Below the pieces are notes generated by a model that had not been told where the DNA came from, made no database searches, and saw only the letters and a list, made by a program, of their open reading frames with translations. Below, piece by piece: positions 16,820 through 18,939 of a stretch of DNA of 64,000 bases. Source of the DNA: Roseibium sp. (GTDB taxonomy: Bacteria; Pseudomonadota; Alphaproteobacteria; Rhizobiales; Stappiaceae); NCBI GenBank assembly GCA_039986495.1, contig JBDWQP010000013.1, positions 88,084 to 152,083 on the forward strand, written 5' to 3'. Each line of letters starts with the position of its first letter. The stretch's first letter is position 1. Both the position numbers and the translations under genes were made by a program.

Positions 16820-16842
16820 AGGCGCCGGGATCACCGGCGCCT
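16820..16842 (-). terminator. Probable terminator after the secreted-protein gene
   Basis: AGGCGCCGG-gatca-CCGGCGCCT, 4 nt past the stop codon. Confidence 0.65.
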
Positions 16843-16846
16843 ACTT

Positions 16847-17599
16847 TCAGTCTGCGGCAACAACACCCGGCAGACTCAAATCACCAGATGCAACATCAAA
16901 AACATCCACGACGCAAAGAAGTGGCGCATGGACATTCTGGTTGACGCGCAGAGCGGATGTCACCCCATCATACTTCATGCCAGCCACGATGGACGGGTCA
17001 TTAAATGGAACGTTGATTGTGATTTCTTCACCGTTCAGGATCGGTGAAAACCCGGGGCTGTCGATATAAATCGGTAACCCAGGCCAGGTTGCCGGCATTT
17101 GTGGCGTAGCGCCGTCAGGTATGTCCTGGACGGAAAGCGCACCACTCCCGCAAATTTCGTTGGGCGTCAAAACAACCCAATGTGAGTGCCACTTGGCACC
17201 GTCATTGGCAAGGTCTCCGTCACCATTCTCGTCGAAGAGAGGTGTGTCATCGAAATCCGGATGGCTCGTGGCTACAAGCGCAAGTATTCCCTTTCCGTCT
17301 TCGAAACCAACGGATTTCGGTTCCAGTGTTGTCGGCCAGACGTAAGCTTCTACCGGGGCGCCGCCAAGTTGACCGGCAGGTTCCGGAACTGTCGCACCTG
17401 CGGTCCCTTGTAAAGTCATGTGAAACGTCACCACCCGCCCTTTTCGATGAACGTGTGCGGCGAGAATATCGTAATTCGGATCAATCTGAGTGTTCAGTGG
17501 CGAGACGATTGCGCCTTCCTGGTGGATCGCATGCGACCCATCAGCGAGTGCTGCAAAGGGGATCGCTGCGGCGACAAGGCTTCCAAGGATGTTTTTCAT
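16847..17599 (-). CDS. Uncharacterised secreted His/Asp-rich protein
   Basis: Sec signal (MKNILGSLVAAAIPFAALA/DG), AGGAG RBS 9 nt before ATG 17599, motifs SHPDFDDTPLFDENGDGD and WHSHWVVL. Confidence 0.8.
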   Translation of the reverse strand: MKNILGSLVAAAIPFAALADGSHAIHQEGAIVSPLNTQIDPNYDILAAHVHRKGRVVTFHMTLQGTAGATVPEPAGQLGGAPVEAYVWPTTLEPKSVGFEDGKGILALVATSHPDFDDTPLFDENGDGDLANDGAKWHSHWVVLTPNEICGSGALSVQDIPDGATPQMPATWPGLPIYIDSPGFSPILNGEEITINVPFNDPSIVAGMKYDGVTSALRVNQNVHAPLLCVVDVFDVASGDLSLPGVVAAD

Positions 17600-17634
17600 A
17601 GTCGGCAACTCCTGTTTTCTATACGTCGATCTTT

Positions 17635-17682
17635 TAATAGCGACTCGCTATTATTGCAAGTTTAATTTCGAGTCGCTACATT
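17635..17682. promoter_or_regulatory. Divergent promoter with two operator copies and a shared TTGCAA -35
   Basis: Perfect 19-bp IR TAATAGCGA-C-TCGCTATTA (17635-17653); second copy at 17663-17681 (14/19 identical); TTGCAA at 17654-17659, then N17, then TACATT at 17677-17682. Confidence 0.8.
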
Positions 17683-17688
17683 ACTGCC

Positions 17689-18240
17689 ATGAAGACTCGC
17701 TCACAAAAGCAAACCATCCAGGATTTGATCGACCGATTGTCGCGGCTGAATGCCGCTGAAGAATGGAACGGACCGCTGAACCCGTCCCAGTTCGCGGCCT
17801 TGTCCTATCTTGGCCGTGCCAATCAGATGTCCCGTGCACCGTCCCATGTTGCAGACTACCTGGCGACAACACGCGGCACCGCATCGCAGACGCTCAAGGC
17901 CCTGGCACGCAAAGACCTTATTGAGGAGACACGGTCCGAAACCGACAAGCGCAGCATCCGCTATGATGTAACCGCGGCAGGATTGGATATTCTGGAGCAC
18001 CCGTCAGCGCTTAACGGTGCTATTGGCGCGCTGGAGTCCGAAACCTCGGAAGCCTTGGCTACAGGGCTTGAAACGCTGGTAAACACTGCACTTAAACGCC
18101 AAGGCGGCAGATCATTTGGCATCTGCATCACATGTCGTCACCACGAAGAGCAAAGAGATGGTGGATATTGCCGCCTCCTCAATATTACGCTTTCTCCCAG
18201 GCAAACCACCCAAATCTGTAACGAACACTCACCATCTTAG
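17689..18240 (+). CDS. MarR family regulator with C-terminal Cys4 motif
   Basis: LNPSQFAALSYL, TRGTASQTLKALARKDLI, DKRSIRY winged helix; C-terminal C-x2-C-x11-C-x15-C. Confidence 0.9.
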   Translation: MKTRSQKQTIQDLIDRLSRLNAAEEWNGPLNPSQFAALSYLGRANQMSRAPSHVADYLATTRGTASQTLKALARKDLIEETRSETDKRSIRYDVTAAGLDILEHPSALNGAIGALESETSEALATGLETLVNTALKRQGGRSFGICITCRHHEEQRDGGYCRLLNITLSPRQTTQICNEHSPS

Positions 18241-18249
18241 GAACTTTAC

Positions 18250-18939
18250 ATGGACAAGAATGCTTCCATTCTGGGTCTTTACATCGGCCAACCGGAACAT
18301 CGCTGGGAAGGCAAAGAGCCGTCTGCCATCCGTAAGACACGCGCGGAAGGCACACAGGACGTGAATCAGACGGGATTCGTTCTCGATCAACAAGCTGACT
18401 TGACCGTGCATGGTGGTTTGGAAAAGGCAATTCACCACTACCCGTCTGAGCATTACAGCCAATGGCAGGAACAGTTTCCGGAAACCAGTGCAGCCTATCA
18501 AATTGGAGGTTTTGGTGAAAACCTATCGACAGCAGGCTTTACGGAAGAAGATCTGTGCATTGGGGACATAATCGCGGTTGGATCGACGCGCCTGCAAATT
18601 TCACAAGGTCGCCAGCCTTGCTGGAAACTCAACCTGCACACCGGAAATTCCAAAATGGCTGCAGCATTTCAAAAAGCAGGCAAAACCGGCTGGTACTATC
18701 GGGTTCTGGAAACAGGACATATAACGGTCGGTGACGACATGAAAATAGTCGAACGCCTCTGCCCTGACTGGATATTGCGCGATGTAATTCTGGCACGGTT
18801 CAATCCGCGCCTTGATCAGGAAACCGCGGCAAGGCTCGCCGAGCTTCGGGAGCTCGCCGAACCTTGGCGGATATCATTCGCAAAGAAAGCACATCCTGCG
18901 TTTCACGAAGTTACGTCCAGGCGCCTAAAAGGCGTCTGA
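18250..18939 (+). CDS. MOSC domain protein, YiiM type with 3-alpha domain
   Basis: SAIRK, DQQADLTVHGGLEKAIHHY, FGENLST, SQGRQPCWKL, GWYYRVLETG. Confidence 0.92.
   Translation: MDKNASILGLYIGQPEHRWEGKEPSAIRKTRAEGTQDVNQTGFVLDQQADLTVHGGLEKAIHHYPSEHYSQWQEQFPETSAAYQIGGFGENLSTAGFTEEDLCIGDIIAVGSTRLQISQGRQPCWKLNLHTGNSKMAAAFQKAGKTGWYYRVLETGHITVGDDMKIVERLCPDWILRDVILARFNPRLDQETAARLAELRELAEPWRISFAKKAHPAFHEVTSRRLKGV

Follow-up and report, generated by a model that had tools for sequence, protein, structure and literature searches.

We report that the control region between marR and a divergent gene for a secreted protein, in a marine Roseibium (formerly Labrenzia; Alphaproteobacteria, Stappiaceae), appears to hold two back-to-back sigma-70 promoters built on a single -35 element. 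Comparison of related sequences makes it likely that the MarR protein occludes both promoters and that the mRNA of marR, together with the MOSC gene that follows it, is leaderless. The region lies in a stretch of 64,000 nucleotides (nt) from contig JBDWQP010000013.1 of assembly GCA_039986495.1, referred to here as the window. A gap of 89 nt separates the minus-strand secreted-protein gene (16847-17599) from the plus-strand marR (17689-18240). On the plus strand it reads, flanking codons included, CAT (17597-17599), agtcggcaaCTCCTgttttctatacgtcgat, CTTTTA, ATAGCGACTCGCTATTA, TTGCAA, gtttaatttcgagtcgc, TACATT, actgcc and ATG (17689). From this sequence and its relatives we infer the start sites, the binding of MarR, repression rather than activation, competition between polymerases, and an effector. 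The features are collected in Table 1.

Table 1. Features of the marR region (positions in the window)
Feature	Position	Strand	Basis or remark
Terminator-like hairpin that would end the leftward transcription unit	16820-16842	-	Sequence scan
Secreted-protein gene, 250 amino acids, signal peptide, uncharacterised family	16847-17599	-	Open reading frame (ORF); start taken as ATG 17599 rather than TTG 17608
Shine-Dalgarno sequence AGGAG of the secreted-protein gene	17609-17613	-	9 nt before the ATG; CTCC kept in 23/23 aligned loci
Predicted start of leftward transcription (minus-strand G), 25-nt leader	17624	-	Seventh nt past the leftward -10 candidate
Leftward -10 candidate TAAAAG (plus strand CTTTTA)	17631-17636	-	Read from the sequence; TA start in 23/23 relatives
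Putative operator 1, TAATAGCGAcTCGCTATTA, core 17638-17650, centre 17644	17635-17653	.	Perfect palindrome; core unique in the genome
Candidate shared -35 hexamer TTGCAA	17654-17659	.	Its own reverse complement; invariant in 23/23 loci
Putative operator 2, TAATTTCGAgTCGCTACAT, core TTTCGAGTCGCTA at 17666-17678, centre 17672	17663-17681	.	27.4 bits
Rightward -10 candidate TACATT	17677-17682	+	Relatives' consensus TA[C/T]A[A/T][A/T] at +23 to +28 from the first T of TTGCAA
marR, 183 amino acids, MarR winged helix and C-terminal Cys4/His module	17689-18240	+	A of ATG 17689 is the predicted +1
MOSC/YiiM-like gene	18250-18939	+	Pfam MOSC, E = 1.3e-36; NCBIfam PRK11536 below cut-off

Both candidate promoters would depend on TTGCAA (17654-17659), the sole hexamer that presents TTG at positions 1-3 on both strands. 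Rightward it is followed by a 17-nt spacer (17660-17676) and TACATT (17677-17682); leftward it is followed by a spacer of the same length (17653-17637) and, on the minus strand, by TAAAAG (17636-17631). The two -10 candidates are 41 base pairs (bp) apart, and the predicted starts about 65 bp. A first-pass annotation of this DNA had named TTGCAA, the two 17-nt spacers, both -10 hexamers and the marR ATG, and direct reading found every one of them where it had placed them. For a wider search we scored a promoter-like match as a -35 of at least 4/6, a 17-nt spacer and a TAnnnn of at least 4/6, and a bidirectional match as one hexamer that serves in this way on both strands. Single matches occur in the window at 0.22 per kb per strand; the bidirectional pattern has a single instance in the entire 4.92-Mb genome, the one at 17654. 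Other boxes considered as -10 elements, namely TTTAAT (+7 to +12, rightward), TAAACT (leftward) and TATAGA (17619-17624), were set aside for want of a -35 partner, of the essential A at position 2, or of conservation.

Homologs of this MarR were present in 24 of 61 related genomes, and more were taken from public contigs and across the class. We aligned 23 loci by anchoring on TTGCAA; they come from Roseibium and two other families, and their MarR proteins are 48-70% identical to that of the window. A block of 44 bp (-19 to +24) shows 90% pairwise identity in these loci, against 39% in the adjacent 22 nt. The TTGCAA hexamer is invariant, and in all 23 loci a hexamer that begins with TA stands exactly 17 nt from it on each side. 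The rightward hexamer (+23 to +28) follows TA[C/T]A[A/T][A/T], with TATAAA and TACATA the commonest forms and a final T in 4/23; the leftward hexamer is most often TATTAA. The start of the secreted-protein gene lies 51-60 nt from TTGCAA, with CTCC (GGAG on the coding strand) retained in each of the 23 loci. Outside this set TTGCAA recurs in five more distant loci (L042, L043, L045, L048 and L058). The double use of the palindrome, as put forward in the first-pass annotation, agrees with this pattern and draws further support from L042 and L044, described below.

Several observations nevertheless weigh against this arrangement, some of them touching the shared -35 and others the marR start. Each promoter matches only 8/12 positions of the Escherichia coli consensus, and a scanner with a threshold of 9/12 calls neither. 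We did not take this miss as contrary evidence, because alphaproteobacterial -10 boxes mostly lack the T at -7, which is present in only 30-43% of the promoters of this class (PMC7703639); the statement of the first-pass annotation that the last T is often absent is hence a documented one. The TA of each -10 is also part of an operator or of its extension, so that part of its conservation could reflect contacts with MarR rather than with sigma. Conservation extends over all 44 bp of the block, and an unchanged TTGCAA within the genus is therefore not specific by itself. None of the 23 leftward -10 hexamers ends in T. In L018 the hexamer is the non-palindromic TTGCAC, operator 1 is displaced and no leftward -10 is found at a distance of 17 nt; the shared -35 is therefore not universal. 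As for the marR start, the ATG of L042 is separated from the -10 by 8 nt, the distant homologs L020, L021 and L063 have longer marR leaders, and the leaderless signature of the genome as a whole is modest, about twofold, and partly confounded by in-frame stop codons.

The points on the leftward side can be read together as a sign that the -35 is not shared. TTGCAA would then serve marR alone, the secreted-protein gene would use another promoter or another sigma factor, and the leftward TA would be no more than a TAATA extension of the operator-1 palindrome. The overlap of the leftward -10 with the 19-bp palindrome extension, the missing final T and locus L018 are what this explanation would lead one to expect, as is the retention of nnGCAA in L053, L060 and L063, which have no divergent gene. 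Yet L042 and L045 argue the other way. Operator 1 of L042 has shifted to a position downstream of the leftward -10, and in L045 the leftward -10 likewise comes before operator 1; the spacers are unrelated to operator 1, and TAATAG (L042) and TATCTC (L045) still stand exactly 17 nt from TTGCAA. The mirror extension of operator 2 is not conserved as TA, so MarR does not need these bases. L044, which carries marR and the MOSC gene without a secreted-protein gene, has the non-palindromic TTGCGC and has thus lost the CAA half that reads TTG leftward. No alternative -35/-10 pair lies between operator 1 and the Shine-Dalgarno sequence of the secreted-protein gene. Finally, the bases at the predicted leftward start obey the purine/pyrimidine rule in about 70% of the loci (minus-strand purine at +1 in 16/23, preceding pyrimidine in 17/23). 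We consequently regard an unshared -35 as unlikely, and a -35 truly shared by the two promoters as probable on balance.

The start of marR can be placed with somewhat more assurance. TACATT is followed by 6 nt (ACTGCC) and then by the ATG, and no GGAG, GAGG or AGGA occurs upstream of the marR of the window. The geometry is canonical: counted from the A of the ATG (+1), the -10 occupies -12 to -7, and the -35 hexamer has its first T at -35. The ATG is the first canonical start after an in-frame upstream stop, and the N-terminus that it predicts aligns with the annotated N-termini of 39 homologs. The first 50 nt of the predicted mRNA have a minimum free energy of -3.6 kcal/mol with the AUG unpaired, and 162 of 200 shuffled sequences fold at least as well; the 5' end is thus unstructured. 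Non-AUG starts are inefficient on leaderless mRNAs, and the marR start is ATG in 23/23 aligned loci, with a pyrimidine (C or T) at -1 in all of them, and again ATG in every more distant locus inspected. A Shine-Dalgarno sequence (GGAG, GAGG or AGGA within 20 nt) precedes marR in 0/23. The ATG lies at +34 to +36 from the first T of TTGCAA in 23/23 loci. The gap between the -10 and the ATG is 5 nt in 7 loci, 6 nt in 15 and 7 nt in 1, inside the range of 5-8 nt expected for a leaderless message, and its sequence is unconserved. Where the spacer varies, the gap compensates for it: spacer and gap measure 16 and 7 nt in L043 and 18 and 5 nt in L045, and the ATG is 35 nt from the first T of TTGCAA in both. 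The same distance of 35 nt is found in L018, L044, L048 and L058, with 34 nt in L060 and 37 nt in L042. Mapped leaderless messages are well represented in the class: 171 were identified in Sinorhizobium meliloti, all of them AUG-started (PMC3616915), and 375 in Caulobacter, where they are translated as efficiently as leadered ones (PMC4117421).

A different account of the same region would have transcription of marR begin upstream of operator 2, or at another promoter, and yield a short AT-rich leader that lacks a Shine-Dalgarno sequence; the TAYNNN would then be kept as the edge of operator 2. The operator core indeed ends in the two bases with which the -10 begins, a Shine-Dalgarno sequence is missing from 75% of Caulobacter genes (PMC4117421), and the leaders of L020, L021 and L063 are real. 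This account does not, however, explain why the ATG is held at 35 ± 1 nt from the -35, nor why the A at +26 and the A or T at +27 and +28 are conserved although they lie beyond the operator core, nor why the pyrimidine at -1, the A at +1 and the ATG recur without exception. The 89-nt gap contains no other promoter-like element, and the box TTTAAT has neither the essential A nor a -35. A leadered marR is accordingly improbable to us, and a leaderless mRNA that starts at the A of ATG 17689, as the first-pass annotation had supposed, is what the comparative evidence quite strongly favors.

For comparison with other genes we used a crude gene set of the genome, in which TANNNT at -12 precedes 2.6% of the ATG genes without a Shine-Dalgarno sequence, compared to about 1.3% at other in-frame positions. 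Both TANNNT and TA.A.. hexamers are about twofold over-represented at -12 in such genes across the whole genome, which hints that this Roseibium may have a few dozen further leaderless genes. The MOSC gene begins 9 nt after marR, and its AAGGAA Shine-Dalgarno sequence overlaps the marR stop codon TAA (18238-18252; MOSC ATG at 18250). It is probably co-transcribed with marR, and the overlap of stop codon and Shine-Dalgarno sequence suggests a single leaderless bicistronic mRNA in which the second cistron is initiated in the normal way. A scan of 17300-18000 against Rfam returned no RNA family, and a riboswitch or leader-RNA reading of the region was dropped on that account.

The two spacers hold the putative binding sites of the regulator. 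Operator 1 is a perfect 9-1-9 inverted repeat that occupies the leftward spacer in full and reaches the -10 beyond it. Operator 2 extends over the 3' part of the rightward spacer and into the -10 that follows, of which it includes the first two bases, and is identical to operator 1 at 14/19 positions in inverted orientation (13/19 directly), the figure that had been given for it in the first-pass annotation, as had the perfect symmetry of operator 1. The operator core TAGCGANTCGCTA, with up to one mismatch, has one occurrence in the 4.92-Mb genome, against 12 per strand for a reversed control pattern. A position weight matrix (PWM) built from the relatives only, with the window left out, scored operator 1 at 24.5-26.6 bits and operator 2 at 27.4 bits; the maximum among the controls (20 column-shuffled matrices) was 22.7. 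Together with the single bidirectional promoter match, these figures put the arrangement well beyond chance. Most relatives carry one asymmetric, imperfect 13-mer, TAGCGAGTCGAAA, at both operators, in mutually inverted orientation; its perfect half-site, TAGCGA, faces away from the -35 and its degenerate one, TTTCGA, towards it. A perfect operator 1 is found in the window and in six other loci (L009, L010, L014, L016, L019 and L043). The consensus is TAGCGA-N-TCG(A/C)(A/T)A; both operators are kept in the 23 close loci and are still recognisable in more distant ones. Every Roseibium genome that encodes a close MarR has the operator 15-mer at its marR locus, and 0 of about 11 genomes without one have it. 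This co-occurrence fits a dedicated local regulator, and in combination with the consensus it is our reason for regarding MarR as such. That the two sites are operators of this MarR is, of all the claims made here, the one we hold most firmly, and we would call it highly probable.

The first-pass annotation had gone further and assigned the stronger site to repression of the secreted protein and the weaker one to autoregulation. The assignment itself is supported: L044, which has no secreted-protein gene, retains only the site in the place of operator 2, so that operator 1 would belong to the secreted-protein gene and operator 2 to marR. The difference in strength holds in some species and not in general, since most relatives carry the same imperfect 13-mer twice. 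The distance between the operator centers ranges from 27 to 57 bp across relatives; no fixed phasing is therefore required, and each operator travels with its own promoter. A third copy of GACTCGCT at 17694-17701 (marR codons 2-5, 24 nt past the operator-2 copy) was considered as a third operator; it is conserved in no relative and is probably due to chance.

We also scanned the genome with the matrix beyond the locus, which returned one site inside a coding region and one elsewhere. The latter, at C14:801867-801883 of the same genome and outside the window, is the operator-like AATACCGAGTCGAAATT (23.0 bits), found in an AT-rich gap with its end 3 nt short of an ATG; the gene that begins there encodes a PAS/chemoreceptor-like product with the N-terminus MTIFSNKLPRSVLDAFSRSQAMIEFTPDG. 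With the control maximum at 22.7 bits, its standing as a second target of MarR is borderline. In the relatives, extra operator matches with one mismatch were no commoner than matches to the control pattern. Additional members of the regulon were set aside on these two grounds, and the regulon is treated as local.

The close packing of operators and promoter elements allows yet another interpretation, in which the 44 bp form a single composite site, bound by a MarR tetramer or by two dimers, and TTGCAA is contacted by protein. The likeness to promoters would be incidental, or MarR would activate in one direction, comparable to ForZ, a MarR protein proposed to auto-activate its leaderless gene (PMC12421854). 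The block is uniformly conserved at about 90% within the genus, and the operators form a larger inverted repeat whose arms (17638-17653 and 17663-17678) are 88% complementary, both of which are in keeping with a single site. The variable spacing of the operators is not in keeping with it; the -35 meanwhile holds a constant position with regard to operator 2, the -10 and the ATG. TTGCAA is moreover displaced by 1.5 bp from the center of symmetry of the operator pair, and operators between a -35 and a -10 with the optimal 17-bp spacer occupy the classic position of a repressor site. We judge the composite site to be very improbable.

The mechanism that we favor is thus one of repression at two promoters. 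A single palindromic -35 would serve two sigma-70-type promoters, each with an optimal 17-bp spacer and a -10 that starts with TA and mostly lacks the final T, as do most alphaproteobacterial promoters. Rightward transcription would start at the A of the marR ATG and yield a leaderless marR-MOSC mRNA, to be translated without a Shine-Dalgarno sequence; leftward transcription would start near 17624 and provide the secreted-protein gene with a 25-nt leader and a canonical GGAG. Dimers of MarR would bind the two palindromes of 13-19 bp, one per promoter and each between the -35 and the -10 (centered at about -20 leftward and -17 rightward), and would exclude RNA polymerase sterically, with operator 1 acting on the secreted-protein gene and operator 2 providing autoregulation. 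Exclusion of polymerase is the usual mode of action of MarR proteins (PMC5401885). A signal, probably sensed by the conserved C-terminal Cys4/His module, would release the repressor and open both promoters. Because the -35 elements coincide, two polymerases could not occupy both promoters at once, and leftward and rightward transcription may compete upon derepression. In bidirectional promoters that share a -10, competition matters only at high promoter activity (PMC12825309).

One may ask whether the coincidence of the -35 elements is itself under selection as an either/or device, retained together with the operators in all three of the alphaproteobacterial families covered (that of Roseibium and those of L017 and L043). 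We consider this rather doubtful. Were it true, polymerase would choose its orientation at each binding event, and the output of secreted protein would be inversely coupled to that of the leaderless marR-MOSC mRNA, with their ratio set. The region would then represent a class of -35-sharing bidirectional promoters, distinct from the described class that shares the -10, and a MarR with a metal- or redox-sensing Cys4 module would control an uncharacterised periplasmic family of more than 6000 members.

The composition of the module varies among relatives. The secreted-protein gene is divergent to marR in 26 loci, and the MOSC gene is present in most loci, not all. In five relatives (L016, L017, L019, L020 and L021) the MOSC gene is not next to marR. 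Given this variation, the conserved core would be MarR with its own operator, and the secreted-protein gene with operator 1 a separable unit. A different layout is seen in L047, L051 and L052, whose MarR proteins are 38-40% identical to that of the window: TTGACT, then a 16-nt spacer with an operator in it, and then TACATT precede a leader of about 60 nt, with a second operator in this leader, just before the ATG.

The marR ORF matches Pfam MarR_2 (E = 8.5e-12), HTH_27 and MarR, each above cut-off. Its structural model has a predicted local distance difference test (pLDDT) score of 81, and the best fold matches are FabT, MepR and ZitR (probability 1.00). FabT is also the best sequence match in the PDB, at E = 3e-4, so that similarity to any characterised MarR is only remote. 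In the C-terminal tail (residues 146-177, window 18124-18219) the pattern C146-x2-C149-x2-H152 ... C161 ... C177-H-E-H is invariant across 40 homologs. According to the model the tail forms a small beta module that is not part of the MarR fold; no solved MarR structure matches it, and it looks like a metal or Fe-S/redox sensor. The secreted protein has no match in Pfam, NCBIfam or the PDB (by sequence), and its model (pLDDT 55) has no Foldseek match at E <= 0.001 and no confident fold. Its family comprises more than 6000 homologs at E <= 1e-5, all "hypothetical" or unnamed except for one "CHRD domain-containing protein" in UniRef. The secreted protein outdoes its regulator in conservation, with 65-84% identity compared to 48-70%. 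P0122 (eukprot g2089.t1), a sequence from a eukaryote data set, shares 82% identity with the secreted protein of Roseibium and is most likely a bacterial contaminant or a symbiont sequence.

The layout is familiar from other repressors. In the tetR-tetA regions of Tn10 and Tn1721, a repressor gene and its target diverge from overlapping back-to-back promoters in a gap of less than 100 bp, and two palindromic operators, about 30 bp apart from center to center, lie over the core promoter elements. One dimeric repressor represses both genes and is released by the inducer, and the tetR mRNA of Tn1721 is leaderless. The PRM/PR region of phage lambda likewise has back-to-back divergent promoters, with the operators OR1-OR3 in the core promoters. 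The locus described here resembles either of these arrangements, built with a MarR protein. It differs from tet in that the repressor is of the MarR rather than the TetR family, the target is a secreted protein and not an efflux pump, and the -35 hexamers coincide fully. It differs from lambda, where there are three operators, cooperative binding and activation of PRM, and where the -35 elements are adjacent and not shared; lambda is also a switch between lysis and lysogeny, in contrast to a local regulator on a chromosome. Within the MarR family, the marO region of marRAB/marC, MexR-mexAB, HucR-uricase and OhrR-ohrA provide cases of a MarR dimer that binds two palindromes over -35/-10 elements in a divergent region and combines autoregulation with control of a neighboring gene. 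The marR of E. coli, by comparison, has a leader, with site II spanning the Shine-Dalgarno sequence, and the Roseibium MarR has the additional Cys4/His module.

Leaderless regulator mRNAs of this kind have precedents: the lambda cI mRNA is leaderless (PMC9031893), and CrtR of Corynebacterium glutamicum (PMC5401885) and ForZ of Streptomyces formicae (PMC12421854) are divergently encoded MarR-family proteins whose own genes are reported to be leaderless, each with a single binding region. Both of the latter are actinobacterial, where leaderless mRNAs are very common; they have one operator each, and no shared palindromic -35 has been described for them. The symmetric promoters of Warman, Grainger and colleagues share the -10, with starts most often 18 bp apart and also 10 or 23 bp apart (PMC12825309, PMC10268837). 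The Roseibium region is like these in having one short pseudo-symmetric element, at which polymerase would bind in either orientation, each binding mode excluding the other. It does not belong to their class, as the -35 is the shared element here and both the -10 candidates and the predicted starts are too far apart. A search of the literature on a shared palindromic -35 in a MarR region, or on a MarR-YiiM module, returned nothing specific.

The arrangement is thus a well-conserved but ordinary design, and its regulatory principle is not new. Specific to this case are the full coincidence of the -35 elements in TTGCAA, the conservation across several families and the uncharacterised nature of the controlled proteins. 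For the three-gene module the analysis provides a precise and testable regulatory map, with two operators, a consensus site, two predicted starts and a predicted leaderless mRNA for the regulator. It may also serve as a clean natural case for the study of polymerase competition at a shared -35 and of leaderless translation in a non-model alphaproteobacterium. Both main proteins are uncharacterised, the secreted one belonging to a family of thousands of members in marine Alphaproteobacteria and the regulator to a MarR subfamily with a Cys4/His tail. A dedicated MarR would offer a direct route to the inducing signal, and from there to the function of the secreted protein.

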